Sequence record: NC_019725.1
Length of the DNA stretch: 50,552 bases
Source of the DNA: Escherichia phage ADB-2
Reading direction: 5' to 3' (one strand)
Position 1 is the first letter of the stretch. Every line of letters starts with the position of its first letter. Below the pieces are notes generated by a model. That model was not told the origin of the DNA and did not search any database. It was given only the letters and a program-made list of their open reading frames with translations. This document shows positions 2,468 to 47,927 of the stretch, in pieces. The position numbers were made by a program, and so were the translations under genes.

Positions 2468-3153
2468 TGCGATCGCTTTGAAAAAACCACGCGGCGACAG
2501 GGATCTTATCAGCTTCGTTTTGGCAGACTTGCCGCCAAGTTTGTTTTGCTGTGCAGAGTACCCGTCAGGCAGATTTACAGGTTTTCTCTCCGGCATGACA
2601 AAATCGTCAGAGGTCCACAGACAAGTTTTCTTCGGGTAAGCATCGCGCGGCGCAATATACATCGGGAACCAGGGGTGTGAGTCATTCTCAGGAAGATAGC
2701 CGCCATACTCCCAGGGATTGAAGGAGTGATTTGGTTTTCTCCACGCAGACGACAGGACGCTTACCGGATTCTCAATGATGTAAGTCACGCCTAGCTATCG
2801 CCAATGTTCGCAGCAATCCGGGCAGTAGCGACAGCCTTCTCCTGGAATAACGGATCGCGTTCACGCTTGCTTGCAAAATGGCGAGCGCCACTAACAGCCA
2901 GGTCAGTGCAAGGAGGGAAAGCCATAATGAAATCCGGCTTGCCATACACACCAGAGATAGCATCACGCTCAAACGCTGCGTCAATGAACACGTTCACATA
3001 CTCAATGTTCGGATGCTCCACTCTGGCATTGTACTTTGCGTAATCTCCGTGATCGGCTCCGTCAAAGTTGAAGCACATCACCTTATGACCTTGCTTTGCC
3101 AGTTCATAACCAGCAATCCCGGAACCGTCGAATAGCGACCAAATTAATTTCAT
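2450..3153 (-). pseudogene. cytosine-C5 DNA methyltransferase-like gene, frame-disrupted near 2790 (possible sequencing indel)
   Basis: N-terminal ORF has LFDGSGIAG (motif I-like) and FPPCTDLAVSG (PC motif IV-like); adjacent ORF in -1 frame begins YIIENPVS (ENV motif VI-like); spacing of motifs matches C5-MTases. Confidence 0.5.
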
Positions 3154-3213
3154 CGTGACTTCCTCTTCTGATTGGTTTATGTGCCGGACTATACCCGATC
3201 TACCCGACCGAGT

Positions 3214-3233
3214 CGTTAGCAAAAAATGCTATT
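3214..3233 (-). promoter_or_regulatory. conserved intergenic element (copy 3, variant TAGCAT)
   Basis: rc = AATAGCATTTTTTGCTAACG; upstream of methyltransferase-like gene. Confidence 0.55.
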
Positions 3234-3854
3234 CCAATAATTGCTCATTATTCCATCAGTGCTGTAATAGGTGGAATAATTTTGATTGTGATTGATTGTG
3301 AATGATGAAACGTGATTATTGCATGGTGTGCAACAGTTGGTTGATTTGTTGCTTAGAATGCAATGATTGTGAGAGGGGGGATTTAGTGTTACCCGGTTCG
3401 CCTGGTGGTCATCTCCATTTTTAGCAAAACGTGCTATCGATTACGGTTACACTTGACCGCGTGTTAACAGTTGTCTACAATTTGCCTGAATCTCAATAGT
3501 AGACAAAATTACACCAAATTACGCCTTATAATATACATATAGATATATGTATATATATAATATATAAGTATTTTTTTATTTGTATATATAGATACTATTA
3601 TCTGTAATATGGTTGTATAGCGTGTCTACTATGTTAATCGTTGGATGCTCTGATTATTGTATTCATGTTTATATATACAGTAGTTTTATCGGCTCATATT
3701 TATATGGGGAAAGCGATTAACACGATTAACACGATTAACCACACTTAAAATCGACCTGCAAGCCTTGACGCAGGCGGGTCGTCGTGTAACACTGCAATTA
3801 GAGACGCGCTGTTACGCGTTAATCATTGTGTATATTGAAAATAAGGAGAAACCT
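3223..3854. promoter_or_regulatory. AT-rich divergent intergenic region with short repeats (candidate regulatory hub / origin)
   Basis: 630 bp without convincing ORF between divergent gene blocks; TATATA-rich; 3 tandem copies of GATTAACAC (3714-3741); inverted TTGTCTAC/GTAGACAA; TGATTG repeats. Confidence 0.5.
3417..3437 (-). promoter_or_regulatory. conserved intergenic element (copy 4)
   Basis: rc = ATAGCACGTTTTGCTAAAAAT; no coding gene directly downstream on minus strand. Confidence 0.55.
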
Positions 3855-4319
3855 ATGAGTTCTTACCAATCAGATGCGGTTCAGGCAGCAATTCAGGCGG
3901 CTTACGAGAAGGCAGGGGTAACGGTTGAGCAGCGCCAGGAGGCTAAGGTGACTGATGTTATCCGGGCCGCTTGCGATCAGCTTTATGGTGATGGCGAGAA
4001 TACTGAGTTCACATTCGACGCTACTCAAATGGCTGAGGCCGCTGTAAGGAAGTCAATGCCAGACGCCGACGATTATGATGTTGTCGAGTGCGCTGGGTCG
4101 TGGTTGTTGGGTAAAACCGAAGAGATTAACGAGAAGTTTAAATCATCATTCATCACCCCGATCGTTTCTCGCCACTTCTCCAAAATCGGCAAATCGGTCA
4201 AGGTGAGCGTGACTATGAACGATGAGAAGTTGCGAGTAGTTACTATCTCAGTGAGTGATGAAGAGGTTCCGGTGAAGAAGCGCCGCAGCCGGAAAAAGTT
4301 AGCTTGGCTGATTGCTTGA
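3855..4319 (+). CDS. hypothetical protein
   Basis: 154 aa from ATG with AAGGAG RBS. Confidence 0.55.
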   Translation: MSSYQSDAVQAAIQAAYEKAGVTVEQRQEAKVTDVIRAACDQLYGDGENTEFTFDATQMAEAAVRKSMPDADDYDVVECAGSWLLGKTEEINEKFKSSFITPIVSRHFSKIGKSVKVSVTMNDEKLRVVTISVSDEEVPVKKRRSRKKLAWLIA

Positions 4320-4434
4320 TTCATTTGATGTTGATGTTAGCAAGCTATCCGATAGCGAGTTAATGGTTCGTGATGTGAATGAGATCGTGCGCCAGATGAA
4401 GGCACATATCGAAAAGTGTGGACTGTAAGGAGAG

Positions 4435-4680
4435 ATGAGTATGAGCAAAATTAAGCATGACGCCCTGAAAGGTATCTTGATGCGACTAAACCCAGGCGAA
4501 GCATTCCAGCTTAACCCCGAGACGTTTGGATTCAATGGTGATTATCGTACAACCTTCGAATTTGTAAGGTATGTAAAGAAAGAGTTTGGATTCGAAGTTA
4601 TTCACGCAGGTCTTATCAATGGCATCCAGACATTCATCTTTAAGCCAAATGAGATTCGTTGCTTCACACTGATGAAATAG
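4435..4680 (+). CDS. hypothetical protein
   Basis: 81-aa ORF, AGGAGAG RBS. Confidence 0.5.
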   Translation: MSMSKIKHDALKGILMRLNPGEAFQLNPETFGFNGDYRTTFEFVRYVKKEFGFEVIHAGLINGIQTFIFKPNEIRCFTLMK

Positions 4681-4695
4681 CACTTTTTGTTAAAG
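4676..4695 (+). promoter_or_regulatory. conserved intergenic element (copy 5)
   Basis: AATAGCACTTTTTGTTAAAG; TAG doubles as stop of upstream ORF. Confidence 0.6.
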
Positions 4696-4752
4696 ACCGG
4701 TCTAGCGGATCGGGTATTATCTTTTCATCGACACGATACAGAGGAAACGAAT

Positions 4753-4947: not shown

Positions 4948-4949
4948 TC

Positions 4950-6288: not shown

Positions 6289-6395
6289 ACTTCAATACAA
6301 TAGCTCTATGGTCTGCCGTCTGGTTCTTCTGCATGGGTCACGTTATGGTCGGCATCGTGGTAATGCTTCTCCTGTGTGCGGGGGCGTTCGAATGA
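6285..6395 (+). CDS. small hydrophobic (membrane) peptide
   Basis: 36-aa ORF MNFNTIALWSAVWFFCMGHVMVGIVVMLLLCAGAFE; ATGA overlap with upstream stop. Confidence 0.4.
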   Translation: MNFNTIALWSAVWFFCMGHVMVGIVVMLLLCAGAFE

Positions 6396-6565
6396 TGCGA
6401 ATATTGATTTGCATGATGGCGGCGGTCGCCCTGGCTATCCTGGTAGTGTCAGGATGCGGAGAGGTCAGAGATAGCTGTCATAAGACCGGGAACCAGGTTA
6501 CTACGTTTGTGATGGTTGGCAATGTTTTGCTACCAATCACATCAAATGAAATCACTTGCGAATAG
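6392..6565 (+). CDS. small putative lipoprotein
   Basis: MMRILICMMAAVALAILVVSGC... signal peptide with lipobox-like VSGC; ATGA overlap with previous ORF. Confidence 0.4.
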   Translation: MMRILICMMAAVALAILVVSGCGEVRDSCHKTGNQVTTFVMVGNVLLPITSNEITCE

Positions 6566-6573
6566 AGGTTGAT

Positions 6574-6765
6574 ATGGCTGATTTTATGCACCAAATGATT
6601 GCAGTATTCAAAGGCAGTGATGACCAGGAAGTGAAAGAGTGCTTTACTGTCGACAAGACTTATAGTGCATCGCTAACCAGTTTCGGGAATATCTCATTAC
6701 TTGATGATAACGGCGACCCCTGGATATTCGACGAAGACACCGATTGCTTCGAAATTAAAGAATAG
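6574..6765 (+). CDS. hypothetical acidic protein
   Basis: 63 aa from ATG; stop TAG is part of next element copy. Confidence 0.45.
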   Translation: MADFMHQMIAVFKGSDDQEVKECFTVDKTYSASLTSFGNISLLDDNGDPWIFDEDTDCFEIKE

Positions 6766-6836: not shown

Positions 6837-7355
6837 ATGAAAATTAAATTACTTTGCACTGGCGGTTACAAAGGCTTTACCCGAGATCTGGAAGCAGACC
6901 CTATCGTGGTTGATGCGGTGAAGTGTGATTCCAGTACCGGAGGCTACCGCGTTAAGGTTGACGATCTGGTTAAAGCTGGCGTGTACGATCTGGACTATGG
7001 ACTTTCGGTTAGCCCTGTATTTGGTCCGGCTGACTTTAACGAGAATGACGGAACGATGTTCTTCTTCGAATGGGAAGTCCAAGCAAATCCTAAGCCGCGC
7101 AAGGTTCGACTTCTCAGTAATGGCGGCTACCCGCTGCGACAAGGCTATGAGAACCGCACATTCCCAGTTATCGTGGACTTTGAAGAAATTACTAGCAATC
7201 TGGCATACGTTAACGATGAGCAGTTGCGAGCCGTTGGATTTGTCGGTGGGATGAATAAAGAGGCACTTTGCTTCTTCCACTGTAACGCCGAGCCGTTCGA
7301 TATTGAGTGCGAGTTAGTTACTAAGCACGAATTGTTAAAAGGGGATTCGTCCTGA
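6837..7355 (+). CDS. hypothetical protein
   Basis: 172-aa ORF. Confidence 0.5.
   Translation: MKIKLLCTGGYKGFTRDLEADPIVVDAVKCDSSTGGYRVKVDDLVKAGVYDLDYGLSVSPVFGPADFNENDGTMFFFEWEVQANPKPRKVRLLSNGGYPLRQGYENRTFPVIVDFEEITSNLAYVNDEQLRAVGFVGGMNKEALCFFHCNAEPFDIECELVTKHELLKGDSS
7322..7340 (+). promoter_or_regulatory. conserved intergenic element (copy 9)
   Basis: TAAGCACGAATTGTTAAAA; followed by hairpin GGGGATT...AATCCCC. Confidence 0.6.
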
Positions 7356-8344: not shown

Positions 8345-8609
8345 GATCAATCCTGTACATTTCATTGGTGTAATGAACGGAACCAAAACGGCAGAGTTCC
8401 GCATCAATGACCGCAACTTCCAGGTTGGTGATATCATTGAGCTACGCGAGTTCGATCGTGACGAGTTTACTGGGTGGGAAGTTCACGCAAGGGTATCCGA
8501 TGTTACCGATGTGACGCCATACATCAATCGCGGGTATGACGATCAGGAATGCGACTTCACGCAATACGTGATGTTATCAATCAAACCTTACAGGAAGGTT
8601 AGACCATGA
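8322..8609 (+). CDS. ASCH/DUF3850-like small protein (PUA-like fold candidate)
   Basis: 95 aa; N-terminal pattern KIHKLKINPVHF...GTKTAEFRINDRNFQVGDIIELRE resembles the DUF3850 family; recalled from memory, not searched. Confidence 0.45.
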   Translation: MSKIHKLKINPVHFIGVMNGTKTAEFRINDRNFQVGDIIELREFDRDEFTGWEVHARVSDVTDVTPYINRGYDDQECDFTQYVMLSIKPYRKVRP

Positions 8610-9007
8610 AATTTGAATGCGTATCAAGTAGCGGATCTGGCTTTAAGTGGGGAAAAATCTACGAAGGCGCTCGAATCAATGACGACAGCTTCGTTGTCGT
8701 GGATGAGAACGGCAGTAACGTGAACATCATCCGTCGTCACGAGTACCAGGAAATTTTCCTGCCGTATTGCGGTAGTTCAAAATATATCTTCCATCGAATC
8801 GTGGATGGTGTTAAATTTAGAGACGTAATCGAAGCAATCAATCAACTGCATAATAAAGAGGTAAAATTTATGAAATTTGAATGTATCAGTGATAATACCA
8901 AAAAATTTACTGTTGGCAAAATCTACGACGTTCCTACTGAGCACGCAAAGCACACTGTAGCGCTTACTGACGATACGCCGTCACCGCATTGCTACCGTAA
9001 CGCATAA
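8606..9007 (+). CDS. hypothetical protein with internal tandem duplication
   Basis: 133 aa; MKFECVSSSGSGFKWGKIYEG and MKFECISDNTKKFTVGKIYDV are repeated modules; the second is preceded by an in-frame AAAGAGG RBS + ATG at 8871. Confidence 0.45.
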   Translation: MKFECVSSSGSGFKWGKIYEGARINDDSFVVVDENGSNVNIIRRHEYQEIFLPYCGSSKYIFHRIVDGVKFRDVIEAINQLHNKEVKFMKFECISDNTKKFTVGKIYDVPTEHAKHTVALTDDTPSPHCYRNA

Positions 9008-11786: not shown

Positions 11787-12127
11787 TTACGATTAACCTG
11801 TCAGAGAAGCAAGCTCGTGAAATCCTTGATTCGATCGGCGACCAGTTGCATATAAAAGGAGCAGCCGCCGAGTTGCTAAACCAGATCGAAAAACAACTTA
11901 CTCCTGTGTCAACGAATCAAGCTGAGTTTGCAGCCTGGAAAAGCGAGCGAATCCTGCCCAATATCATCAAGGCATGGAAGCGCAAGCATAAAAAAGAAAT
12001 CAATGTTGATGACTTATTTACTGATGAATTAAGCCCTTCAAAGGTTGCTCAATATCAGTTGCGATACATGGAATCAGTTTGCAATCAGGTTTTAGGTGTT
12101 AATTTTTCATTTGGGAGAGGTAAATAA
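11783..12127 (+). CDS. hypothetical protein
   Basis: 114-aa ORF, start overlaps upstream stop. Confidence 0.5.
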   Translation: MITINLSEKQAREILDSIGDQLHIKGAAAELLNQIEKQLTPVSTNQAEFAAWKSERILPNIIKAWKRKHKKEINVDDLFTDELSPSKVAQYQLRYMESVCNQVLGVNFSFGRGK

Positions 12128-12330
12128 TGTTCGGTTTAAGTGAAGCGGAATGGAACGTAGTAAAGCGCGCAGCGAAGGAATTGAATAAATTCGTTAGCGG
12201 AATGAAGAAAGAAGATCGCAAAAACGAAAAGATTATGATTGATGTGATCTCAACTCATCACAAAAAGGTTGAGCTACTCATTGATCGATACAAGTTTGTA
12301 TGGACCGCCGGATATATTGCAGGCGCTTAG
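12127..12330 (+). CDS. hypothetical protein
   Basis: 67-aa ORF. Confidence 0.45.
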   Translation: MFGLSEAEWNVVKRAAKELNKFVSGMKKEDRKNEKIMIDVISTHHKKVELLIDRYKFVWTAGYIAGA

Positions 12331-13332: not shown

Positions 13333-13349
13333 AGCACTAAATGTTAAAC
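13329..13349 (+). promoter_or_regulatory. conserved intergenic element (copy 14)
   Basis: AAATAGCACTAAATGTTAAAC immediately followed by RBS AAGAGGA and the terminase small subunit ATG. Confidence 0.6.
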
Positions 13350-13364
13350 AAAGAGGATGGATTT

Positions 13365-13888
13365 ATGACTGAACCTAAGAACGCCCCCGTTGTCCAGGGA
13401 GGTAATTTCAAAGAGCTATACAAGAAAAAGTTCGGCACTGTTCTTGCGAAGAATCGGGCAATGACTCCTGAGCAATTATTCGATCTGTCAGTGAAGTATT
13501 TTGAGTGGGCCGAAGATAATGCGATCAAGCGTCAGAATCAGCCAGCTTCCAGGGTGGCGTTTACGAGTCACTTGTTCATAAGCCGCGCGTCTTCACTTGG
13601 ACCGGATACCGACTATTCATAGGAGCAAGCGAGGCCGCAATCATTAAATGGAAACGAGAGGAAGAATACAGTGAGGTTATGGAGTTCGTGGAATCTGTAA
13701 TCAACGAGCAAAAATTCCAGCTTGCTGCCAACGGTGTGATTAACGCTTCCTTTATCGGTAAGGATTTGGGAATCGATAAGCCAGCCTCAATCAATATCGA
13801 AAACTCGTCAGCTTCCGCATCGACAGTAGTCGCCACTACTGAGGATGCAATGAAAGAGGCAGTAAACAGCATTCTTGATATGCTTTAA
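13365..13888 (+). CDS. terminase small subunit (frame disrupted near 13545-13600)
   Basis: N-terminal part (frame of 13365) and C-terminal part (...PRVFTWTGYRLFIGASEAAIIKW...) lie in frames offset by -1; first gene of the packaging/head cluster. Confidence 0.55.
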
Positions 13889-13926: not shown

Positions 13927-15501
13927 ATGATTCAATGGGAAGAACTCGACGCAACTCAGAAGTTAGCGATCAAGAAAATGAGCGAGGCCAATTTCGAAAA
14001 AATGATTCGGATCTGGTTCCAGCTTATGCAGGCGCAGCAGTTCCAGCCTAACTGGCATCACCTTTACCTATGCCACGAAGTGGAGGAAATCATTGCAGGC
14101 CGACGCGGGAATACTATCTTTAACGTCACGCCCGGTTCCGGTAAGACTGAGGTGTTCTCAATCCACCTTCCGGTTTACGCGATGCTCAAGTGTAAGAAGG
14201 TGCGAAACCTTAACGTGTCGTTTGCCGATAGTCTGGTTAAGCGTAACAGTAAGCGAGTGCGTGAGATTATCAGTAGCAACGAGTTCCAGGAGCTATGGCC
14301 CTGTAAGTTCGGCACATCAAAAGACGAAGAGATGCAAGTCCTTAACAGCGACGGTAAGGTCTGGTTCGAACTAATCTCCGCAGCGGCTGGCGGTCGAATT
14401 ACAGGTTCGCGTGGCGGCTACATGACGCCAGGATTCTCCGGGATGGTAATGCTCGACGATATAGACAAGCCTGACGATATGTTCTCAAAGGTTAAGCGTG
14501 AGCGTACTCACATGCTATTGAAGAACACCATACGATCCCGTCGTATGCACAACGAGACGCCAATTATTGCAATCCAGCAGCGACTGCACGCGCAGGATTC
14601 AACTTGGTTTATGATGAATGGAGGTATGGGTATTGAGTTTGACCAGATCTCGATCCCGGCGCTGGTGACTGAAGAATACGGAAAGACACTTCCTGATTGG
14701 TTGCAGCCTTACTTTGAGCGTGATGTTTTAGCGTCTGAGTATGTAGAATTGGATGGTGTTAAGCATTACTCTTTTTGGCCCAGCAAGGAAAGCGTTCACG
14801 ACCTGTTAGCGTTACGAGAAGCAGATCAGTATACCTTTGATTCTCAGTATCAGCAGAAACCGATCGCGCTGGGTGGCTCCGTGTTTAACTCGGAGTGGTG
14901 GACTTATTACGGAAGCAGCCTTGACGCTGACGAGCCAGATCCTGGTAAATATGATTACCGTTTTATCACCGCTGATACCGCTCAGAAGACAGGTGAGCTA
15001 AACGACTACACAGTCTTTTGTTTGTGGGGTAAGAAAAACGATAAGGTTTACTTTATCGACGGCATTCGCGGTAAGTGGGAAGCGCCGGATATGGAGAAAC
15101 AATTTACCGCCTTTGTGAATCAGGCATGGAGGCACAATAAATCAATGGGCGTGCTTCGCAAAATCTACGTGGAAGATAAAGCGAGCGGAACGGGCTTGAT
15201 TCAGAACTTAAGGAAAAAGACTCCGATCTCTATCACTCCGTTGCAGCGTAACAAAGACAAAGTTACCCGCGCGATGGATGCTCAGCCAGTAATCAAGGCT
15301 GGGCGCGTAGTTCTTCCAGAAGAGCACCCTATGCTCGCGGAAATCATCGCAGAACATAGCGCGTTCACTTACGATGACACGCATCCGCACGACGATATTG
15401 TCGATAACTTCATGGACGCTGCAAACATTGAACTACTGACAATTGACGATCCTATCGAGAGAATGAAGCGACTCGCGGGATGGTTAAGCGGTAATAAATG
15501 A
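13927..15501 (+). CDS. terminase large subunit
   Basis: 524 aa; Walker A-like TPGSGKT near N-terminus; acidic nuclease-like C-terminal half; position before portal. Confidence 0.85.
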   Translation: MIQWEELDATQKLAIKKMSEANFEKMIRIWFQLMQAQQFQPNWHHLYLCHEVEEIIAGRRGNTIFNVTPGSGKTEVFSIHLPVYAMLKCKKVRNLNVSFADSLVKRNSKRVREIISSNEFQELWPCKFGTSKDEEMQVLNSDGKVWFELISAAAGGRITGSRGGYMTPGFSGMVMLDDIDKPDDMFSKVKRERTHMLLKNTIRSRRMHNETPIIAIQQRLHAQDSTWFMMNGGMGIEFDQISIPALVTEEYGKTLPDWLQPYFERDVLASEYVELDGVKHYSFWPSKESVHDLLALREADQYTFDSQYQQKPIALGGSVFNSEWWTYYGSSLDADEPDPGKYDYRFITADTAQKTGELNDYTVFCLWGKKNDKVYFIDGIRGKWEAPDMEKQFTAFVNQAWRHNKSMGVLRKIYVEDKASGTGLIQNLRKKTPISITPLQRNKDKVTRAMDAQPVIKAGRVVLPEEHPMLAEIIAEHSAFTYDDTHPHDDIVDNFMDAANIELLTIDDPIERMKRLAGWLSGNK

Positions 15502-15511
15502 GATATAATCA

Positions 15512-15539
15512 GGGCTGTCAATTGACGGCCCTTTTTATT
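15512..15539 (+). terminator. hairpin + T-run between terminase and portal (attenuator/terminator-like)
   Basis: GGGCTGTCAA/TTGACGGCCC stem (1 mismatch) + TTTTTATT. Confidence 0.45.
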
Positions 15540-15548
15540 GGAGGAAAC

Positions 15549-16831
15549 ATGAAAATTGTTAAGCATGATGGATATAACGATATCTTTAACGGCGGCGCGG
15601 ACGGATCGCCTAAGCCATTCTTTATGTCTGATGCATCATATCACGTCGGTTCTTTCTACAACGACAACGCAACCGCGAAGCGAATTGTGGATGTTATCCC
15701 GGAAGAGATGGTGACGGCTGGATTTAAAATGTCAGGTGTTAAGGATGAAAAAGAGTTCAAATCTTTATGGGATAGCTACAAACTTGATTCAAGTCTGGTG
15801 GATCTTCTTTGTTGGGCGCGACTTTACGGTGGCGCGGCGATGGTGGCAATCATCAACGACAACCGGATGTTAACCAGTCAGGCAAAGCCTGGAGCTAAAC
15901 TTGAAGGCGTCCGAGTTTACGATCGATTTGCTATCACTGTTGAAAAGCGAGTCACCAATGCAAGATCCCCTCGCTATGGTGAGCCTGAAATTTACAAGGT
16001 ATCCCCTGGCGACAATATGCAGCCGTATCTGATTCATCACTCAAGAGTCTTTATTGCTGATGGTGAACGAGTAACGCAACAGGCAAGAAAGCAGAATCAA
16101 GGATGGGGGCGTCGGTATTGAACAAGTCACTGATTGATGCAATCTGTGACTATGATTACTGTGAATCTCTGGCCACTCAGATCTTGCGACGTAAGCAACA
16201 GGCTGTATGGAAGGTCAAAGGTCTTGCCGAAATGTGTGATGATGATGATGCTCAGTATGCCGCTCGACTGCGACTTGCTCAGGTTGATGATAACTCCGGC
16301 GTAGGTCGTGCGATCGGTATCGATGCTGAGACTGAGGAATATGACGTTCTCAACTCTGATATCAGCGGAGTTCCTGAGTTCTTATCAAGCAAGATGGACC
16401 GCATCGTCTCCCTGTCAGGGATTCATGAGATTATCATCAAGAATAAGAACGTAGGTGGCGTATCAGCGAGCCAAAACACAGCGCTTGAGACTTTCTATAA
16501 GCTAGTCGACCGCAAGCGTGAGGAAGACTACAGGCCGCTTCTTGAGTTCTTGTTACCGTTCATTGTTGAAGAGGAAGAGTGGTCTATCGAGTTTGAGCCT
16601 TTGTCTGTTCCTAGCAAGAAAGAGGAATCAGAGATCACGAAGAATAACGTTGAGTCAGTCACAAAGGCTATCACTGAGCAAATCATCGATCTGGAAGAAG
16701 CTCGCGACACGTTGCGATCTATTGCCCCTGAGTTCAAACTCAAGGATGGAAATAACATCAACATTCGCGAACCTGAAGAAACAACCGAGCCGGAGCCTGG
16801 ATTAGGGGAGAAGTTAGAAGATGAAAATTAA
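15549..16831 (+). CDS. portal protein (frame disrupted at G-run ~16104-16110)
   Basis: Two adjacent ORFs offset by -1 at GGGGG run; combined ~430 aa with acidic C-terminus, directly downstream of terminase large subunit; GGAGGA RBS before ATG 15549. Confidence 0.7.
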
Positions 16832-21445: not shown

Positions 21446-21856
21446 ATGAATCAAGAAACTTTAATTGCAGTTGTTGAGCAAATGCGAAAGCTGGTTCCGG
21501 CACTTCGTAAGGTTCCAGATGAAACGCTTTATGCGTGGGTAGAAATGGCTGAGCTTTTTGTATGCCAGAAGACCTTTAAAGACGCATACGTCAAAGCGCT
21601 CGCTCTTTATGCATTGCACCTTGCTTTCCTTGACGGGGCGCTAAAAGGTGAAGATGAGGATCTGGAATCGTACTCACGACGAGTTACGTCATTCTCCCTG
21701 AGCGGTGAATTTAGCCAGACTTTCGGAGAGGTTACAAAGAACCAGTCAGGGAACATGATGCTTTCGACGCCGTGGGGTAAGATGTTCGAACAGCTTAAAG
21801 CGCGACGCCGTGGTCGATTCGCATTAATGACAGGACTCCGTGGAGGATGCCACTAA
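21446..21856 (+). CDS. head-tail connector/adaptor-like protein
   Basis: 136 aa; position between capsid and tail genes. Confidence 0.4.
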   Translation: MNQETLIAVVEQMRKLVPALRKVPDETLYAWVEMAELFVCQKTFKDAYVKALALYALHLAFLDGALKGEDEDLESYSRRVTSFSLSGEFSQTFGEVTKNQSGNMMLSTPWGKMFEQLKARRRGRFALMTGLRGGCH

Positions 21857-23050: not shown

Positions 23051-23052
23051 TT

Positions 23053-27749: not shown

Positions 27750-27775
27750 AAGCCCGCCTTGCGCGGGTTTTTTTG
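27750..27775 (+). terminator. rho-independent terminator
   Basis: CCCGCCTTGCGCGGG + TTTTTTT; followed by TGtAGAAT box. Confidence 0.8.
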
Positions 27776-27815
27776 TAGCTGTAGAATGGTTGCAGGTAAA
27801 CAAGAGGAAAAATCA

Positions 27816-28597
27816 ATGAGCGAAAACAAAAAACTTTATGATGAAGAAAGTGGAAGAAGCCTGTTTCACAACTGCCTACAATCACTGTATCCTGGTGAGA
27901 TAATCACCCTTATTGAGGTTGATGGTAGTAAGTTCGGCGCCAGGTGTACCGATTCCACGGTGAGAATATCCAGTACACTCCAGAAGAAATCATGCAGGCC
28001 CAGCAAACTGGAACGCTACCGCCGAAAGAAATTACATTCCGCGGCGAGAAATACGGGGCGCGACCTTTCGGTATATCCGGGATCTCATTTGACAGTTCAG
28101 GCAAGGCAACAAAACCACAATTAACGGTGGCAAACATTGATAGTCGCGTATCTGCGATGATTCGTGCATATAACGGACTAATGCAAGCTAAGGTGACTAT
28201 CTGGATAACTCAGCGTGATCTTATTAGCTCCGATGGCTCAATCGCTGATGGAGCTTACCGCAAACTGGTATACTATATCGAGCGTCCGAACTATGTTGAT
28301 AAAAGCGTTGCGCGGTTCGATCTCACATCACCTTACGATATGGACGGCATCATGATTCCGTCTCGACTCACGCAAAGCGTATGCTATTGGGCGCAGCGTG
28401 GATGGTATAAGACCGGGAAGGGCTGCGGATATAACGGGCAAAACGGTTACTTTGATAAAGACAATAATCCGGTAGATGATCCTTCACTGGACTTTTGCCC
28501 GGGTACGGTAACGTCCTGCCGCCTGAGATTCGGCGCAAACAATGAATTGGATTTTGGCGGTTGCGCTGTCGCTTCACTACAGAGGAAAAATCAATGA
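27816..28597 (+). CDS. minor tail protein (lambda L-like), frame disrupted near 27935-27945
   Basis: N-terminal ...IITLIEVDGSKFGA and continuation YRFHGENIQYTPEE...ITFRGEKYGARPFGISGISF...PQLTVANIDSRVSAM align to lambda gpL but in frames offset by -1. Confidence 0.65.
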
Positions 28598-33000: not shown

Positions 33001-33419
33001 GCGTCAAGCTGGGTCTGAAATACAACGGGCAGGAATATAGCGCAGGCATGGCTATGTCTCTGATTGGTTCCGGCGCAGCTGTTAAGGCGCAAATTCTATT
33101 CGAGGCGTCACGATTTGCAATCATGACAGGGATGAACGGTCAGACTCAGTATCCTTTCGTTGTTGAAGGTAATCAGGTGATTCTTAATAGCGCCATCATT
33201 AAGAACGGATTCATCACGAATGCGATGATTGGTAATGTTATTCAATCGAATAACTATGTCGTTAACAAGGCTGGCTGGAGACTTGACAAGGGTGGAACAT
33301 TCGAAAACTACGGAAGTGACGGTGAGGGTGCAATGAAACAAACTAACACCACAATATCTGTTAGGGATGCGAATGGTCGCCTGAGGGTTCAGATTGGCAG
33401 GTTGACTGGCTCATGGTAA
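30002..33419 (+). CDS. central tail fibre / host specificity protein (lambda J-like), two frame disruptions (~30232 and ~30808)
   Basis: Three consecutive ORFs in frames each offset by -1; segments align colinearly to lambda gpJ (e.g. SRTYNGNW|DGTFKKAWTNNPAWVLYDLM vs lambda QYSGIWDGTFKPAYSNNMAWCLWDML; DKWALYEAAQYCDQMVPDGKGGTEPRY). Confidence 0.8.
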
Positions 33420-33425
33420 TATCAA

Positions 33426-33450
33426 GGGCATCGAGAGATGCCTTTTTTTG
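33426..33450 (+). terminator. rho-independent terminator
   Basis: GGCATC-GAGA-GATGCC + TTTTTTT. Confidence 0.8.
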
Positions 33451-33461
33451 GAGGATTTATT

Positions 33462-33766
33462 ATGGCGTACGGTATATCAACTTGGGACGCAAATGGCGTT
33501 TATAATAACTATGGAATTAAGCCCGTTACGGTTGTTGGTTGGAACTTCTTGTCAGCAGGCCAGAATTCAGCATCGTTCAGCTATCAAGTGCCTCCTGGTA
33601 TGCATGTGACTACGTTATAAGCCTTGACGATGGCGCCATTAGTGGGCCTGGCAGGAAAATTATTGCTAGCGGTAATACGATAACAGTAACGCCAACAAAC
33701 TCACCTGGGCCAAACGTGTACCCATCATCAAACTGCTACTTAATAGCATATCTGGAGAATGATTAA
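33462..33766 (+). CDS. hypothetical tail-associated protein (frame disrupted ~33608), paralog of next gene
   Basis: MAYGISTWDANG... N-terminus similar to MSYGAFIDVNGN... of 33766..34455; two ORF pieces offset by -1. Confidence 0.4.
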
Positions 33767-37017: not shown

Positions 37018-37062
37018 TCACCAGGCGACTTCGGTCGCCCATAAATTTTAGGAGAGAAAATC

Positions 37063-37510: not shown

Positions 37511-39373
37511 CTACCCTCTCAATTCTGAAATTATCTCCTTGAGTTCTTCAATTTCTGCCGCCATTCTCTTACATTCACGAATCGCATATTGTGCGCACCC
37601 CATCAAGTCCATCACGATAGGGTTAACGTCTACCGATGGACGGTCGCGCGTCTTACCCCCGACGATGGCGTTAGTCTCGGGGTCCACCTCCACATCGTAC
37701 GTCTCCTCACGGTGTTTGATGTATTGAGGTGCAATCTCTTCGGCCTCTTCGGCAATTATGCCGAAGCGGACGCGCTCCTGCACATCGTCCTTATATACGT
37801 AGTGCACCATGCGCATTTGTTCAATGCGTGCAACCGCTTCTGTAACGTCTGCATCGGAGATATCTTTCTTAAAGTCCCGCCCCGATGTGCCTTGCAAGGC
37901 AAGAACACCACCAGATGAAGGCCAATTGACCGTAAAGCCAGTGCCGTCGCCCTTCTCAAAATATTTATAGATGAGGTTACTATTGATGTTAACCGTATCC
38001 CACATCGTACGAAAGTTACCAGCCGGTACTGACTCTTTCCCGTTGTTTAGGACGAAAGACAACACTGAAGCTGTCGCTGTTGGGCGGACCGTGATATCTC
38101 GATGACAAACCAGGCCGCTCACCCCCGATCCAGAGATCTCCATAAAGGTATCGCGGTACGCGCCCGACGCGTCATATGCGTGCCACTTAAAATTACCCGC
38201 GGCGTCGTTAATCCCCATGCGCCAGCGTACTTTATCGGCGGAATCAGCCCAACATACGCCACCAAAGCCCGACCCGCTCTGCTTAAGGATTAATCCATCT
38301 TGGGAGTCTCCGTTAGATTTGAATTGGCGGAACTCGGCGACGTTATCGACGCGCCCGGTGCCACCTGATCCAATCGGCAGCGGAATAGCTTTTCCGCTGG
38401 CATTATCCCAAGCCCCCCAATCACTATTATCTTTTATGTAAATCCATTTTGATTTAGATTTTGTTTTTACCTGCGTCTCTCCGTTATTCTCAGATTGAAC
38501 AAACCTATCTACACCTAAATTCTCCACTGCCGCACCAATACTTGATAAGTCGCTTAGGTTGGCATTCTTCTTAAGAAGATTGGATGCATCAACGCTATTT
38601 GCTGCGTCTTTAGCTTCCTGTGCGCTGACTGCCGCTGCATCTTTTGCGCTAACCGCTGTATCACGCGCCGACTGTGCATCATTTTTTGCTGAGGTTGCAG
38701 TTTGCGCAGCCGTCTGAGCATTGTTAACGTAGACTGACAGATCGCCTTTTGCGTCATTGATTGCCTGAATTGCCGCCGCCTCTTCTGTGTCGATGTGCGC
38801 AACCGCCGCTGATTCTTTAGCGCCTACATCTGTGATAGCTTGGTCTTTTGCTGCATTGATGCTACCGACCGCTCCGTCAACAATTTGCTGTACCTGACCT
38901 TTAGTGGCATTAGCCTCGTCACGCGCTGCATTCGCTGAGTCGCGAGCAAGTTCAGCTTGATTCTGTGCAGATTCAGCGGCTGATTTGTTAGCCTTAATTT
39001 CTTCAACGATGCGGTTAAGGTTATCCATATCCAGGCTCGCAATGATATCCATTGCCCCTGCAATCTCAGTCTCTTTGCTTTGATAGTACCGAAGCGTCTC
39101 GGCAACGTTTTGAGCCAATCCGTTAACAGTCAGTGAATCGTTAAGCAAGATCACATACTTTCCGTCAGCGGCAGTCTGACCATCAGTAGAGATAGCCTTT
39201 AACTCTGTGTCGCTCACGATGTCGCTGATTACCGCCAGCTTAATCGGTTGCTCTAGGAATACGATAGTTGCACCGACTCTAATCAGAGCAAGCTGATCTT
39301 TCCATTTTGTGTCGGTTCCGTGAACCGTTCCGTCTGCATCCATTGATGCTGTGCCGCGTCTATATAAAGCCAT
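37511..39373 (-). CDS. tail fibre protein with C-terminal intramolecular-chaperone (peptidase S74-like) domain
   Basis: 620 aa; Ala/Asp/Gln-rich repetitive shaft; C-terminal ...RFGIIAEEAEEIAPQYI... resembles the self-cleaving chaperone domains of T5 L-shaped fibre/endosialidases; AAGGAG RBS. Confidence 0.7.
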   Translation of the reverse strand: MALYRRGTASMDADGTVHGTDTKWKDQLALIRVGATIVFLEQPIKLAVISDIVSDTELKAISTDGQTAADGKYVILLNDSLTVNGLAQNVAETLRYYQSKETEIAGAMDIIASLDMDNLNRIVEEIKANKSAAESAQNQAELARDSANAARDEANATKGQVQQIVDGAVGSINAAKDQAITDVGAKESAAVAHIDTEEAAAIQAINDAKGDLSVYVNNAQTAAQTATSAKNDAQSARDTAVSAKDAAAVSAQEAKDAANSVDASNLLKKNANLSDLSSIGAAVENLGVDRFVQSENNGETQVKTKSKSKWIYIKDNSDWGAWDNASGKAIPLPIGSGGTGRVDNVAEFRQFKSNGDSQDGLILKQSGSGFGGVCWADSADKVRWRMGINDAAGNFKWHAYDASGAYRDTFMEISGSGVSGLVCHRDITVRPTATASVLSFVLNNGKESVPAGNFRTMWDTVNINSNLIYKYFEKGDGTGFTVNWPSSGGVLALQGTSGRDFKKDISDADVTEAVARIEQMRMVHYVYKDDVQERVRFGIIAEEAEEIAPQYIKHREETYDVEVDPETNAIVGGKTRDRPSVDVNPIVMDLMGCAQYAIRECKRMAAEIEELKEIISELRG

Positions 39374-39392
39374 AGTATAAACTCCTTAAGTA

Positions 39393-39412
39393 AATAGCAC
39401 GAATTGCTAAGC
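39393..39412 (+). promoter_or_regulatory. conserved intergenic element (copy 18, plus-oriented between minus-strand genes)
   Basis: AAATAGCACGAATTGCTAAGC. Confidence 0.5.
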
Positions 39413-39452
39413 ATAGATTTTATCATTGTGATACACGCCTTGCAATGGGCAA

Positions 39453-39474
39453 TAAAAAACCGCCCGAAGGCGGT
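39453..39474 (-). terminator. rho-independent terminator after primase gene
   Basis: minus strand reads ACCGCCTTCGGGCGGT + TTTTTTATT. Confidence 0.75.
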
Positions 39475-40409
39475 TAGAGTAGGTCACTTGCTGAGAATAA
39501 CTTGGATTGCATTCCTGAGCGGTATCCTCCAGGGTTCGGGATTATTATTTTTAATTGTCGGTCGTCTGCCATGTATAAAGTCTCCTTGTCCGAAGGTTCG
39601 CACGCCACTCTTACTTCTCGATCACCTTTATACCTGTACGCAACCATTTCTAAGTTTTCAGGAGTGAAGCAGGCCCATACCTCTTGCTTTGTGTGAAATG
39701 CAATATGCTGAGCATCAATCCAATTAAGGCATAAGTAGATCGCCTTCTCAGTTTTACCAGTCACGGCAACCGAGCAACTCGTATATTTCTTCGCGTAAAA
39801 TGATTCTCTTCCTTCCTCATCAATAATCAAAATATTGCAAAACTCATCATCAAGCCCGTCCTCATGCACAAGTTGACACGGAATGGTGTGAAACACGCTC
39901 TCCCCGCCATCTTCTCGACGTTTTACGCCAACGTCGAATGATTCAGTGGGTAGTGACTCAAAAATACTTAGGGGTGTGTTTACGCGCTTCTCTGTACGCT
40001 CCATAACTTTCATTACCGCCTCATGATCTGCCATCATGACATTGACACCTGATACCGGAGTTCGGCGCGCTTTCTTGTTTGCCTTGACAATGTATTCCTG
40101 CGGAACCTTGCCGAGAAATCTACCCAGGATATTTATGCATTCGCTATACGGCATACCAGTTAATTTCATCAACCAACCTATCCCGGAGTCGTTACCGCAT
40201 GAGTTGCAGATCGCGCCGCCGTCGCCTGGAGTGTTAAGATTGTCAGTCCAGCGAAAGCGGTCCTTACCTCCGCAGTTAGGGCAGGGCTGGTGTTTCTTGT
40301 TGAATACCTCGTTCGGCAACCCGCAGACTGACTGAAAAGCATCGCGCCATAAACCTTTCATGTACGGCAAAACATCCTCTTTCTGAAACATCATAAATTC
40401 TTCGTTCAC
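39474..40409 (-). CDS. DNA primase (zinc-ribbon + Toprim-type)
   Basis: 311 aa; CPNCGGKDRFRW...CNSCGN zinc-binding motif typical of phage primases; GGAGA RBS before GTG start. Confidence 0.65.
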   Translation of the reverse strand: MNEEFMMFQKEDVLPYMKGLWRDAFQSVCGLPNEVFNKKHQPCPNCGGKDRFRWTDNLNTPGDGGAICNSCGNDSGIGWLMKLTGMPYSECINILGRFLGKVPQEYIVKANKKARRTPVSGVNVMMADHEAVMKVMERTEKRVNTPLSIFESLPTESFDVGVKRREDGGESVFHTIPCQLVHEDGLDDEFCNILIIDEEGRESFYAKKYTSCSVAVTGKTEKAIYLCLNWIDAQHIAFHTKQEVWACFTPENLEMVAYRYKGDREVRVACEPSDKETLYMADDRQLKIIIPNPGGYRSGMQSKLFSASDLL

Positions 40410-41017: not shown

Positions 41018-43035
41018 GTGACAATTAACATCAAAAAGCAAATCGCATTACTTGGCGATGACTACATAAAACGCACTCAAGATCGATTCACTGTCGGCGA
41101 GGTCGTTCCTTACCCGTACCAAGTTGTTGCTTATGCCGAGATCGCGAAACGCCTATCAAATTATGAGCATCCATTCTTCGTTAAAGCGTCTGTATCAGCA
41201 GGTAAGACAATCATCTTCGCTATGGTGGCAAAGCAGTGTCAGAAAATGGGCTTAAAAATGCTCGTTCTTGCTCGTCAGGGTGAGATTGTCGATCAGGATA
41301 GTGAGGAGATTGACAACTTCGGGGTAACTAATTCCATATTCTCAGCCTCATTAGGTATTAAGTCCTGCTACTTCCCGATCGTGTTGGATCTGAGGGTACG
41401 GTTGCAAATGGCCTAGATAATGAGTTGGCTGACTTCGTCCCGCATGTAATTGGGATCGACGAATGTCATCAGGTGGATTGGGAAGACCTTGCGCAAGCCA
41501 TTGATGGCAAGGAAACAATGGAACAAATGAGGGGCGAGAAAGGGAAAATTATCATGGACGGAGATATTCCTCTGATTGGTAATGATGGAAAACCTCTTCT
41601 TGGAACTAAGCGCAGCCAGTACACTATAGTAATCATGGAAATGATGCGACGCTGTAAAGAGGTTCACGGGCACGATCTTAGAATATTTGGTATGACTGGA
41701 TCTGAATTTCGTGGCGTAGTTCCTATTCTGGTAGAGAATCCGAAAGCATTGGGATTCTGGCGTGAGCGAGTAACTGATATCGACACAAACTATCTGATTG
41801 AGTTCGGCTCTGTCGTTCCGACTATATTCGGATCAACAGACGGAGTTCATTACGATCTGGATAAGTTCAAGGCGTCGAGCGAGGACGGAGTGCAGGACTT
41901 TACAGAGAAAGACATGAAGGCTATGGAAGATGAGATCCTTCATGATAAATCTCTTACTCAGCGAATCATGCAAATGGTTGCCAAAAAGGCTGAAGAGCGT
42001 AACGCGGTACTGATTACATGCGCCGGGGTGCGTCACTGTAAAGAGGCGGCGGCTGCACTTCCACCTGGAAGTACCTATGCAATTATCACTGGCGAAACAG
42101 ACACCAAAACGCGCAAGAAGATTCTGGACGATGTAAGGGCAGGAAAAATTAAATACACCTTTCAGGTAATGGCGCTCACTACTGGCGTTAACGTTCCAAA
42201 TTGGGATTTCAGTGTCATACTCCGCAAGATAGGGTCGCTAACACTGTTGATTCAACTTTTGGGTAGGGGTATGCGTCTGCTTAAATCATGGCAGGTTGCT
42301 GAGGGAATGGTTAAGCAGGACCATCTGGTATGGGATTTCGCAGGTACGATGGATGAGTTGGGTCAGCTTTATTTCGATCCGATACTTGAGCAGGCGCAAT
42401 TCCAAAAGCGTTTTGAAAACGGAAAAGACCCGAAAACGTGTCCGAAGTGTGGTTGCGTAAATAGCTTCTACGCTCGCAGATGCATTAACGTCATCGACGG
42501 CGAGCGTTGCGATCATTTCTGGACTTCTCAGATTTGTGAGGACCAGGTTGACGAGCGCACAGGAAAAATCCTTGTTAAAGGATGCGGTGCAGAGAATGAC
42601 GTTGTGGCCCGAGTCTGTCGTTGTTGTGATGTTTCGCTTGTCGATCCTAACCTGAAGTTATCCGGTAAGGCGTACACTAAGAATGACTGGTATGAAGTAA
42701 AGAATTTTGAGGTTACGCTAACCAAAAACCAGAAAGGCATAATATACAAATACACGCTGATTAACGACGATGGTGATGAGTTCAAGGCGTATGAAAAATT
42801 CTTCCCCGAGTCAGACTCTAAGATTTGCGGTACGCTATGGAAAACGAAAGGTGTATTACCTCATGTGTCAGATCCTAAAATGCGTCGCTACTTTATCGGA
42901 ATGAAGAACGCTATCAAGATCGTGCAATACTCTCATCATATAGCGCATCCGGTACGCGTTACTCATAGGCGCAACCAGAAGAAGGAAGATATTATTTCAC
43001 GCAAAGATTTCGGTATGGAGGATATCCCGGAATGA
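41018..43035 (+). CDS. superfamily-2 DNA helicase with C-terminal zinc-ribbon (frame disrupted near 41365-41400)
   Basis: N-terminal ORF has Walker A SAGKT; continuation in -1 frame has DExH box GIDECHQ and later CPKCGC/CRCCD zinc-ribbon motifs. Confidence 0.75.
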
Positions 43036-45235: not shown

Positions 45236-45313
45236 ATCTTTATTTTGCTGTAGTATTAACACCGCTAATTTCATTTTCAGTAATGTATTTCATTATCATG
45301 TAAGGATTAAAAT

Positions 45314-46465: not shown

Positions 46466-46476
46466 TCGCCAAAAAC
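46456..46476 (+). promoter_or_regulatory. conserved intergenic element (copy 23, degenerate)
   Basis: ATCGCACTAATCGCCAAAAAC followed by hairpin CCCGAA..TTCGGG and TATATT. Confidence 0.45.
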
Positions 46477-46528
46477 TCCCGAAGGGATTCGGGTATATTG
46501 ACCACATAGAAAACAAAGAGGGTATTTC

Positions 46529-46705
46529 ATGAAACGAGTTAAGTGCATCCGAAATGATTCCAAAACTCTTCCATTCCGCGTAAATCAGATCTATAGTGTT
46601 GGTTATGATTTCGGTGGTGGATTGTTTGAGATTTACGATGGCAGAGGTTCAACAATCCAAGCCCCTCTGAACGGTCATTACCTGGAATTTATTGAGCTAG
46701 ATTAA
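46529..46705 (+). CDS. small hypothetical protein (58 aa)
   Basis: ATG with AGAGGG RBS; below ORF-track cutoff. Confidence 0.4.
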   Translation: MKRVKCIRNDSKTLPFRVNQIYSVGYDFGGGLFEIYDGRGSTIQAPLNGHYLEFIELD

Positions 46706-46823
46706 CAATATCATTCATAACCTTACGGGCTGGCATGGTTTACATGCTGGCCTTTTTGCGTTGTATCAAGTAAACTTGAAGGTTAAAATCAACTCACTTG
46801 TTCAAAAAATATATGGTGATATT

Positions 46824-47039
46824 ATGAAAGAATTTTTAACAGCGGCTACGTCAAGCACGGGCGGCGCTTCATTGGTAGGGGCGGCGACAGGGCAACTTTA
46901 TATTGCTGGCGCTACATTCATTTGCTTTCTGCTTTTTGGTGCATGGGGCGCATACTGGAAGTATCGTGACAGTAAGGCAATTCAGGAAGCGTTAAACGAT
47001 GGCGATCTAAATAAGGCGCTTAAGATTAGGGGGAGATAA
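46824..47039 (+). CDS. putative holin
   Basis: 71 aa with hydrophobic segment [21 protein letters not shown] and charged C-terminus; immediately upstream of endolysin. Confidence 0.5.
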
Positions 47040-47527
47040 TGAGTTTAAAAAATAACGTTATAGGCGCATCGATCGGGGCCGCTTTGACGTTGACACCTAC
47101 TCTACTGGAACGAATCGAAGGTATAGAGTACGAGGTGTATTACGATATCGCCGGAGTACCTACCGTATGCAGCGGAATAACCGGGCCTGACGTAATACCT
47201 GGTAAGAAATACACTAAGCGAGAATGCGATGCATTGCTGATAAAACATATCGGAGTCGCTCAGCGATACGTTGACAAAAAGGTGAATGTTGATATTCCGG
47301 TAACGATGCGCGCGTCACTGTACAGCTTCACTTTCAACGTTGGTACTGGCGCGTTCGGATCTTCTACAATGCTTAAGCTAATAAATCAGAGTAAGCACAA
47401 GGAAGCGTGCAATCAGTTATGGCGATGGGTATACTACTACAACCCAAAAACCAAAAAGCGAGAAGTGTCTAGAGGACTCAAGAACCGACGCGCTGAAGAA
47501 TACGCGTATTGCGTTAAGGAATTATGA
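47039..47527 (+). CDS. endolysin, GH24 lysozyme with N-terminal signal-anchor-release (SAR)-like domain
   Basis: N-terminal Gly/Ala-rich weakly hydrophobic segment [17 protein letters not shown] followed by catalytic E...D...T pattern ([22 protein letters not shown]). Confidence 0.75.
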
Positions 47528-47927
47528 TGAAACTGAAGAAAATGTGCATTGCGATTACAGTGGCTGTTGGTGTTATTTCTCTATCCGGTTGCTCGACGGC
47601 ATCTGCCTGAGCGGTTTAATCGGATCTAAACCGGAAGTTACAGCACAAATCGGAGAGGAGAACACAAAGCAATTAGCAGGAGTAACCGCAAAATCCGAAG
47701 ATAAGCGAGATGTTAAAGTTGAGAAGTCCAACGTGGGAAAGATTGACTCTTCCTTGAAGAAGTCAATTGAAGTGTCAACCATTCAGGCTAACACGGTTAA
47801 CGCTGAAAGCATCACAGTAACAAAACCGGAAAACTGGTACGATGCAATTGTAGGATGGACTCTCGTTTTCATTGGCCTGTTGCTGGTTTATTTTTCAATT
47901 CGTAAGGACGAAAAAAAGGAGGCGTAA
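47524..47927 (+). CDS. unimolecular spanin candidate: lipoprotein signal + C-terminal membrane anchor (frame disrupted ~47605)
   Basis: [22 protein letters not shown] lipobox signal in one frame; remainder in -1 frame ends with hydrophobic [15 protein letters not shown] + KDEKKEA; last gene of lysis cassette. Confidence 0.5.

Follow-up and report, generated by a model that had tools for sequence, protein, structure and literature searches.

[quoted passage not shown] These breaks are almost certainly single-base deletion errors of unpolished Ion Torrent sequencing, a data-quality artefact and not biology, and the corresponding genes are almost certainly intact in the real phage. The deletions are private to the ADB-2 record, run in one direction and are biased toward homopolymers, and their repair gives full-length proteins. 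Systematic deletion error, proposed by an earlier sequence-only reading of this DNA, fits the platform, the privacy of the sites, their homopolymer context and placement, the pattern of selection and the viability of the phage, and is given a probability of about 0.95 as the explanation of the frame breaks. We infer that the deletions originated at base-calling or consensus, and likewise the identity of the true base at each site.

ADB-2 was sequenced on the Ion Torrent PGM only, using a 200-bp kit, assembled with Newbler 2.6 and annotated with RAST; neither polishing nor Sanger finishing is described in its announcement, and the record is that of a flow-platform genome without independent polishing (PMC3622963). 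Exact protein matches tie the window to ADB-2. The virus was plaque-isolated, propagated and CsCl-purified (PMC3622963), and such plaque-forming material upholds the earlier argument that a viable phage cannot carry so many inactivated essential genes. In PGM data, indels dominate and substitutions are approximately 10-fold rarer, high-frequency indel errors occur at about 1 per kb of reference, and in reads overall insertions exceed deletions and short runs are over-called (Bragg et al. 2013, PMC3623719). In the mechanism proposed here, the length of short identical-base runs would have been under-called at about 20 places in the ADB-2 sequence, leaving each run one base short (two bases at one place) in the Newbler consensus; some 16 of these deletions lie within 14–15 genes, whose reading frames they break or change.

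Splits were identified by tblastn of T1 and SH2 proteins against the window, as two adjacent HSPs with a frame step of −1. All ten frame breaks originally named are real at the protein level, with both halves 92–100% identical to the T1 or SH2 homolog, except as given for the spanin versus T1 (Table 1). The genes do continue in the −1 frame with the expected protein, as the HSP steps show, and a missing base at each site agrees with the extra base in relatives and with the full-length proteins restored by repair. Positions had been given exactly or within 15 nt, save for TerS (placed at ~13570, 41 nt from the actual site). "About ten" breaks was an undercount, the whole-window censuses finding ~20 private deletions, and the suspicion that small-ORF boundaries elsewhere are affected was well founded (4292/4316, 6565, 7318, 8976, and 12323).

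Table 1. Private deletions in the ADB-2 record. Identities are for the two parts of each split gene; the last column gives the extra bases in aligned relatives.
Feature	Position	Strand	Deletion	Location	ORFs and frames	Identity	Relatives
Terminase small subunit (TerS)	13529	+	1 nt, GG to G	aa 55/174	13341–13622 and 13679–13888, frame 3 to 2	98%/99%	+1 in 19/19
Portal protein	16108	+	1 nt	aa 187/427	15498–16121 and 16103–16831	99%/97%	+1 in 17/17
Major tail protein	23590–23592	+	1 nt, GGG to GG	aa 180/222	22999–23634, then frame 3 to 23717	98%/93%	+1 in 55/55
Lambda-L-like minor tail protein	27940	+	1 nt	aa 43/260	27759–28124 and 27944–28597	95%/98%	+1 in 46/47, +4 in one
J-like tail tip protein, first break	30227–30228	+	1 nt	aa 75/1172	30002–30286 and 30262–30864, frame 2 to 1		+1 in 29/30
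J-like tail tip protein, second break	30805–30807	+	1 nt, GGG to GG	~aa 270/1172	30262–30864 and 30804–33419, frame 1 to 3		+1 in 37/38
T1 gp32 homolog (N15 gp22-like small protein)	33608–33609	+	1 nt, AA to A	~aa 50/101	33438–33620 and 33539–33766	C-terminal part 98%	+1 in 14/16, +3 in two
ATP-dependent helicase (T1 gp22 homolog)	41383–41385	+	1 nt	aa 123/672	41018–41416 and 41425–43035	98%/98%	+1 in 27/27
Unimolecular spanin (T1 gp11 homolog)	47605–47607	+	1 nt, CCC to CC	aa 27/133		T1 96%/75%; SH2 93%/97%	+1 in 12/12
Dcm-like C5 cytosine methyltransferase	2793–2796	−	1 nt	~aa 120/243	2791–3222 and 2450–2788, frames −3 to −2	94%/96% (SH2 gp79)	+1 in 12–15 of 12–15
T1 gp77 homolog	4292–4318	+	two of 1 nt	~aa 150–155 of 191	3765–4319, frame 3 to 1		net +2 in 5/5
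ORF boundary	6565	+	1 nt	stop codon/boundary	6308–6565 / 6556–6765		+1 in 7/7
T1 gp71 homolog	7318–7319	+	1 nt	last codon(s)	6837–7355		+1 in 14/14; whole-window census 17/17
212-aa early gene	8976–8977	+	2 nt, GGG to G	truncation at ~aa 124	8606–9007, frame 2 to 3		net +2 in 18/18; whole-window census 19/19
T1 gp59 homolog	12323	+	1 nt, GGG to GG	aa 66/76	12127–12330		+1 in 19/19; whole-window census 20/20
Terminase large subunit (TerL)	15476	+	1 nt, CC to C	4–5 codons before end	13927–15501		+1 in 20/20
T1 gp44 homolog	22186–22187	+	1 nt, CC to C	aa 111/123			+1 in 29/31, other two differ by 3 nt
Intergenic	37020–37023		1 nt, GGG to GG	few bases past Erf-like gene stop			+1 in 27/31, +2 in four
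Intergenic	48213		1 nt, GGG to GG	apparently upstream of SH6 gp68 homolog start			+1 in 8/8; second set 7/7
Intergenic	50386		1 nt, A5 to A4	upstream of DUF3987 helicase (T1 gp9 homolog) start			+1 in 11/11; second set 7/7

Among the structural genes, the J-like protein is divided into three parts (100%, 96.5%, and 94% identical to the homolog), and repair restores 1172/1172 residues. The repaired gp32 homolog aligns over 101/101 residues at 99%, and the helicase is intact at 672 aa on eight contigs. At the portal break, the record lacks a base within a G run that would occupy the third, 4-fold-degenerate position of a Gly codon; the GGGGG noted there does exist, but it was made by the deletion, relatives having GGGGAG. 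In the L-like gene, the base that is missing likewise belongs to the third, 4-fold-degenerate position, here of an Ala codon. In the spanin gene the deletion severs the lipoprotein signal from ORF 47544–47927, a defect already put down to probable sequencing error (Kongari et al. 2018, PMC6139136). The name of the Dcm-like methyltransferase is taken from the LeonhardEuler annotation.

Outside these ten breaks, the gp77 homolog has one deletion that shortens A6 to A5 at 4292–4297 and a second at 4314–4318; repair gives a 191/191 alignment. The gp71 homolog is matched over aa 1–161 of 162, repair of the gp59 homolog restores 76/76, and the early gene broken at 8976 is the homolog of SH6 gp15 and LeonhardEuler bas13_0070. 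The TerL deletion gives a unique 524-aa form, found on one contig only, the listed relatives having 522 aa and JMPW1 and IME167 having 527 aa. The deletion in the gp44 homolog results in an in-frame fusion to the homolog of gp43 (neck/tail completion), producing an artefactual 271-aa ORF (21847–22662); in relatives, these are separate genes of 123 aa and 147 aa. The DUF3987 helicase downstream of the site at 50386 is itself intact (522/522). Sites 13926 and 21432 appeared private against four relatives but, with more relatives, were ordinary intergenic length polymorphisms. Split matches at 784–818, 23040, 47928, and 48519 in an exhaustive protein scan had other sources: ORFs in antisense, polymorphisms that are not private, or an artefact where the record of a relative ends.

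The whole-window censuses count ~20 deletions that are private to the window, 19 removing a single nucleotide and the other 2 nt; this amounts to about 1 per 2.4 kb. Clear private insertions are absent. Private net-frameshifting events number 17–21 across censuses, every one a deletion, and for ~20 events this single direction has a binomial p of 2e-6. A possible private insertion cluster at 4695–4741 was left uncounted, as it rests on 3–4 divergent alignments. With 4–55 relatives aligned per site in the first panel, none shares an ADB-2 deletion at any site where relatives align. As a control, T1, SH2, CLB_P3, JMPW2, and SH6 each carry 2–5 private frameshifting indels of mixed sign, against 17 clusters in the window, and the excess of deletions in ADB-2 is far beyond chance. 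Placement differs as well: nearly all private indels of the five relatives are intergenic or at gene ends, and by a hand classification from the annotations of these relatives, ~14/20 ADB-2 deletions are gene-internal versus ~3/17 of the relatives' private indels (Fisher p = 0.003). The share of ADB-2 deletions that lies in gene bodies follows coding density, as though they went unseen by selection.

The nearest relatives are ~93–95% identical to ADB-2, and a look-up with an early-region protein returned no near-identical relative. Fourteen independent contigs from Logan/ENA/NCBI, 91–95% identical to ADB-2 and with a capsid or VRR-NUC protein that matches exactly, have intact genes of canonical length. 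SH6, a separate phage ~95% identical to ADB-2, likewise has intact genes.

Homopolymer context was found at 17/19 sites, against a null of 45% (p = 8e-5). The two exceptions, portal 16108 and L-like 27940, are the 4-fold-degenerate positions described above, at which a 6-G or 3-C run, respectively, would result from a synonymous G or C. The deletion rate per run is 0.0001, 0.0009, 0.005, 0.007, and 0.024 for run lengths of 1, 2, 3, 5, and 6, respectively, and the difference between runs of ≥2 and those of length 1 is significant (p = 1e-8). None of the 434 runs of four bases showed an error, and the six A's at 24142 were read at their correct length. A loss of 2 nt, as at 8976, is atypical of a one-flow under-call. 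Site contexts were also viewed by eye for methylation-motif errors (GATC/CCWGG), and no such pattern was seen; sensitivity to methylation is not known for Ion Torrent.

Insertion of one base per site yields a single full-length alignment for every gene. The repaired ADB-2 genes have a dN/dS of 0.057 versus T1 (0.041–0.066 for relatives) and contain no premature stops arising from substitutions. Segments upstream of the breaks have a dN/dS of 0.031 and those downstream one of 0.036. Substitutions reflect normal purifying selection before and after each break; downstream values do not near 1, as relaxed selection would have it, although very recent mutations could escape this test.

It is conceivable, but unlikely, that most breaks are errors and that one or several of those in dispensable genes are true ADB-2 mutations. 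This could apply to the Dcm-like methyltransferase (2793), to the early genes broken at 4292–4318 and 8976, and to the altered C-termini at 12323 and 15476. None of the genes concerned is obviously essential, private indels turn up now and then in relatives, close to the ends of genes or within accessory ones (SH2 at 5363 and 7661, and a 50-bp duplication in JMPW2), and the size of the 8976 deletion, unlike a single-flow under-call, favors a genuine mutation there. However, the candidates match the essential-gene breaks in direction, size, and homopolymer context, sequence downstream of them is 85–96% identical to homologs after repair, and they are indistinguishable from demonstrable artefacts. 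A shade less probable still is that at least one break in a dispensable gene (candidates 2793 and 8976) is a natural inactivation, or that the gp44–gp43 fusion at 22187 is real.

That every deletion is real, the sequenced DNA coming from a defective or degenerating genome with many frameshifts (pseudogenes), is scarcely credible. The deposited sequence leaves no doubt about the frame breaks, as this explanation needs, but plaque-isolated, CsCl-purified phage cannot lack TerS, portal, major tail protein, L, J, and helicase together, the essentiality of all six being established knowledge of siphovirus assembly. Moreover, dN/dS downstream of the breaks is as low as upstream, the breaks are common to no relative, and zero insertions together with homopolymer bias speak for a technical cause.

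Equally remote is the idea that the breaks are recoding sites, at which programmed ribosomal frameshifting or transcriptional slippage yields full-length proteins: ADB-2 does use recoding at least once, a −1 programmed frameshift in its tail assembly chaperone pair at 24142, but that site is conserved in 72/76 relatives, while no relative has a frame change at the ~20 break sites, reading past a missing base would require a +1-direction shift at ~16 unrelated sequences, and the break contexts inspected show short runs only, with no obvious common motif. A heptamer scan, confined to the chaperone overlap, located the slippery sequence A_AAA_AAC at 24142–24148, and the relatives that conserve it show no length difference. 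This genuine frameshift must stay unrepaired when the error sites are corrected.

Under-calling in an unpolished flow-based assembly offers no biological novelty, and the value of recognizing it lies in database hygiene. The ADB-2 sequence has RefSeq status (NC_019725), and its truncated, fused, and mis-terminated proteins, such as the 524-aa form of TerL next to TerS, are present in NCBI and UniRef; these proteins also serve as "similar to" references in later Tunavirus genome annotations. The listing of ADB-2 as "spanin-less" is a consequence of the broken spanin in the record (Kongari et al. 2018, PMC6139136). Analyses of pangenomes, core genes, or domain architecture could be led astray by the gp44–gp43 fusion and by the splits in the genes for portal, J, and helicase. 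The repaired coordinates permit a corrected ADB-2 annotation.

In its overall make-up, the ADB-2 record resembles under-call errors of flow-based platforms (Ion Torrent PGM and 454), sharing indels only, clean substitutions, and a preference for homopolymers that grows stronger in longer runs, at a density in the order of one per 1–2.5 kb, like that of flow-based high-frequency indel errors. It differs from read-level PGM data in having deletions only, mostly in 2–3-base runs, as opposed to a surplus of insertions and over-called short runs. Given this departure from the textbook read-level profile, the errors must be of the consensus or high-frequency indel type, or reflect Newbler behavior. 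The chaperone −1 frameshift, of the lambda G/GT type, resembles the breaks in its apparent −1 continuation between adjacent ORFs; in contrast to them, it has a canonical heptamer, is conserved, and involves no indel, whereas the breaks are private and relatives hold the base. The Tunavirus phages T1, SH2, JMPW2, CLB_P3, SH6, and LeonhardEuler share with ADB-2 a collinear gene order and ~94–95% nucleotide identity in the structural module, and after repair ADB-2 proteins align with those of Tunavirus relatives over their full length at 80–99% identity. Unlike in ADB-2, the TerS, portal, tail, and helicase genes of these relatives are intact.

Each gene named in the sequence-only reading, which had proposed about ten single-base frame disruptions caused by missing bases, is split by tblastn with T1 proteins and the SH2 methyltransferase into neighboring HSPs with a frame step of -1, and the ORF map displays adjacent or overlapping ORF pairs at every one (table). 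Each half of a broken gene matches a homolog at 92-100% identity; for the C-terminal part of the spanin the figures are 75% against T1 and 97% against SH2. The split HSPs confirm all ten breaks at the protein level, with positions accurate to within 41 nt, the largest offset being at TerS. The count, however, was too low. Base-level indel censuses, against four genomes, then five full genomes, and then 151 loci, give approximately 20 deletions private to the window and no convincing private insertion. Two sites from the four-genome comparison, 13926 and 21432, were rejected as ordinary intergenic length polymorphisms once more relatives were included.

Frame breaks and further private deletions in the ADB-2 window
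Feature	Position (nt)	Strand	Location or effect	Method
TerS	13529		aa 55/174	tblastn
Portal	16108		aa 187/427	tblastn
Major tail protein	23592		aa 180/222	tblastn
L-like tail protein	27940		aa 43/260	tblastn
J-like tail protein	30227, 30806		aa 75 and ~270 of 1172	tblastn
gp32-like	33608		~aa 50/101	tblastn
Helicase	41383		aa 123/672	tblastn
Spanin	47606		aa 27/133	tblastn
Dcm-like methyltransferase	2793	minus	aa 120/243	tblastn
T1 gp77 homolog	4292, 4316		coding	indel census
Early gene, 212 aa	8976 (2 nt)		coding	indel census
gp59 homolog	12323		coding	indel census
TerL	15476		4-5 codons before end	indel census
gp44 and gp43 homologs	22187		fused into 271-aa ORF 21847-22662	indel census
gp71 homolog	7318		last codon	indel census
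Intergenic or boundary	6565, 37023, 48213, 50386			indel census

Genomes of coliphage T1 and other members of Tunavirus (Drexlerviridae) are collinear with the window over its structural half, at ~94.8% identity. Exact protein matches were found for the ADB-2 large terminase (524 aa, AFV50930.1/YP_007112700.1) and tail fiber (620 aa, AFV50959.1); the terminase length is unique because the TerL deletion lies close to the gene end. The 271-aa ORF is an in-frame fusion of the gp44 (123 aa) and gp43 (147 aa, neck/tail completion) homologs, two separate genes joined artefactually by the deletion, and risks being read as a novel domain architecture. Two other Tunavirus records, KX828710 (SH6) and MG049919 (vB_SflS-ISF001), match ADB-2 exactly in length, at 50,552 bp. 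SH6 is clearly a distinct phage (~95% identity, genes intact), and in the early region ISF001 aligns at only 87% and its sibling ISF002 at 91%.

None of the coding-site deletions is common to any relative. The extra base is present in all aligned IMG/VR and GenBank loci, 4-55 per site in the first panel, a figure that overstates the number of independent genomes, as certain contigs contribute several overlapping loci. A further 14 independent contigs (Logan, ENA, NCBI), chosen because their capsid or VRR-NUC protein matches that of the window exactly, and at most ~95% identical to ADB-2, all carry canonical intact genes (TerS 174 aa, TerL 522, portal 427, major tail protein 222, L 260, helicase 672, spanin 133, with gp44 and gp43 separate) and the extra base at all sites covered. 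As a control, the identical private-frameshift census gave two events in T1, five in SH2, five in CLB_P3, three in JMPW2, and two in SH6, in both directions and, by the annotations of these five relatives, nearly all intergenic or no more than roughly 12 codons from a gene end. In contrast, the window yields 17 clusters, all of them deletions (direction p = 2e-6), and ~14 of its 20 events are gene-internal (placement versus relatives, Fisher p = 0.003); its indels are thus placed as though unseen by selection. JMPW2 itself has a private 50-bp duplication (31870-31969) in an exonuclease VIII gene with no annotated CDS and a split Dam methylase (39259-39972), while private single-base indels lengthen two small genes of SH2 (5363 and 7661); these records probably also hold errors or real lesions.

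With a single base added at each site, and two at 8976, every affected protein aligns in one piece over its full length: among others, the portal has 99% identity over 427/427 residues, J 95% over 1172/1172, the helicase 98.5% over 672/672, and gp32 99% over 101/101. Against T1, dN/dS for repaired ADB-2 over 27 genes (~8,250 codons, none with a substitution-derived stop) is 0.057, indistinguishable from SH2, CLB_P3, JMPW2, and SH6 (0.041-0.066), and 1,330 of 1,611 differences fall in third positions. The broken genes give 0.031 upstream of the breaks and 0.036 downstream, so full purifying selection has acted on the parts past the breaks when read in the restored frame.

Were the breaks recoding sites, relatives might be expected to share them, but none changes frame there, and no slippery motif is obvious in the printed site contexts. 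The tail-assembly-chaperone pair differs: its G-like ORF (23834-24151) shares 85 nt with a -1 frame that has no stop over 24067-24468, with a canonical A_AAA_AAC heptamer at 24142-24148, just 5' of the stop, kept at unchanged length in 72 of 76 relatives. From its sequence, this pair is a candidate for genuine programmed -1 frameshifting, and it must be left as it is when the errors are repaired. The other four relatives, among loci aligned to 24139-24151, have five A in place of six, possibly homopolymer errors of those assemblies. A few breaks in dispensable genes could conceivably be real, an unlikely mixture that nothing supports. A truly defective genome, having lost TerS, portal, major tail protein, L, J, and helicase together, cannot be reconciled with a phage that forms plaques and was propagated and purified, and it conflicts with the selection data.

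The frame breaks are not a biological feature. Private, deletion-only, and homopolymer-biased, they occur alongside normal purifying selection and yield whole proteins on repair, and missing-base error is supported at a probability of about 95%. If the missing base is taken to be the one most relatives carry, 17 of 19 deletions make a homopolymer shorter (from 2 to 1, 3 to 2, 5 to 4, or 6 to 5), against a random-base expectation of 45% (p = 8e-5). The other two, at 16108 in the portal gene and 27940 in L, hit four-fold-degenerate third positions (of Gly GGN and Ala GCN codons), where GGGGGG and CCC would arise if the true base were the synonymous G or C. Deletion rate per run climbs with length, being 0.0001 for single bases, 0.0009 for runs of two, 0.005 for three, 0.007 for five, and 0.024 for six; the 434 four-base runs in the window have zero errors. 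Overall density is one error per 2.4 kb.

A T1-like siphovirus is not expected to encode a tail sheath protein or DNA-directed RNA polymerases, and they are absent from the relatives' annotation tables examined. The ADB-2 announcement names both, together with "2 RNA genes" and an "endolysin without holin" (PMC3622963). Over the whole window ARAGORN detects neither tRNA nor tmRNA genes, and an ORF at 46761-47039, immediately before the lysozyme gene (47039-47527), occupies the site of the 71-aa T1-type holin (PF27028) in relatives; a predicted ADB-2 holin, B508_00375, has been mentioned (Kongari et al. 2018, PMC6139136). The same study places ADB-2 among "spanin-less" phages, describing B508_00385 as like the T1 u-spanin but without a lipoprotein signal, probably "because of a sequencing error". 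That previously published error is now placed at 47605-47607 and is one of about twenty. The breaks matter only in that a RefSeq reference genome holds ~16 coding errors, which spread to protein databases and to later annotations citing ADB-2 proteins. Annotation notes of ISF002 and SA12KD give ADB-2 RefSeq proteins as "similar to" references, so erroneous gene models serve as annotation evidence.

Indel artefacts of flow sequencing are a well-known class, to which the ADB-2 breaks almost certainly belong. The phage, from poultry feces, was plaque-isolated, CsCl-purified, sequenced by Ion Torrent PGM with a 200-bp kit (229,781 reads, 45.5 Mb), assembled into one contig with Newbler 2.6, and annotated by RAST; the description includes no finishing or polishing step (PMC3622963). 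With the same kit, nearly all PGM errors are indels, substitutions being an order of magnitude rarer; under-calling grows with run length, single-base under-calling is "not improbable", and high-frequency indel errors dominate reads at approximately one site per kb of reference (Bragg et al., PMC3623719). ADB-2 resembles these reads in its indel errors and in under-calling that rises with run length. However, PGM insertions outnumber deletions overall and short runs are over-called (Bragg et al., PMC3623719), whereas ADB-2 has deletions only, a pattern that for this reason presumably originates in a consensus-level class of error or in the assembler.
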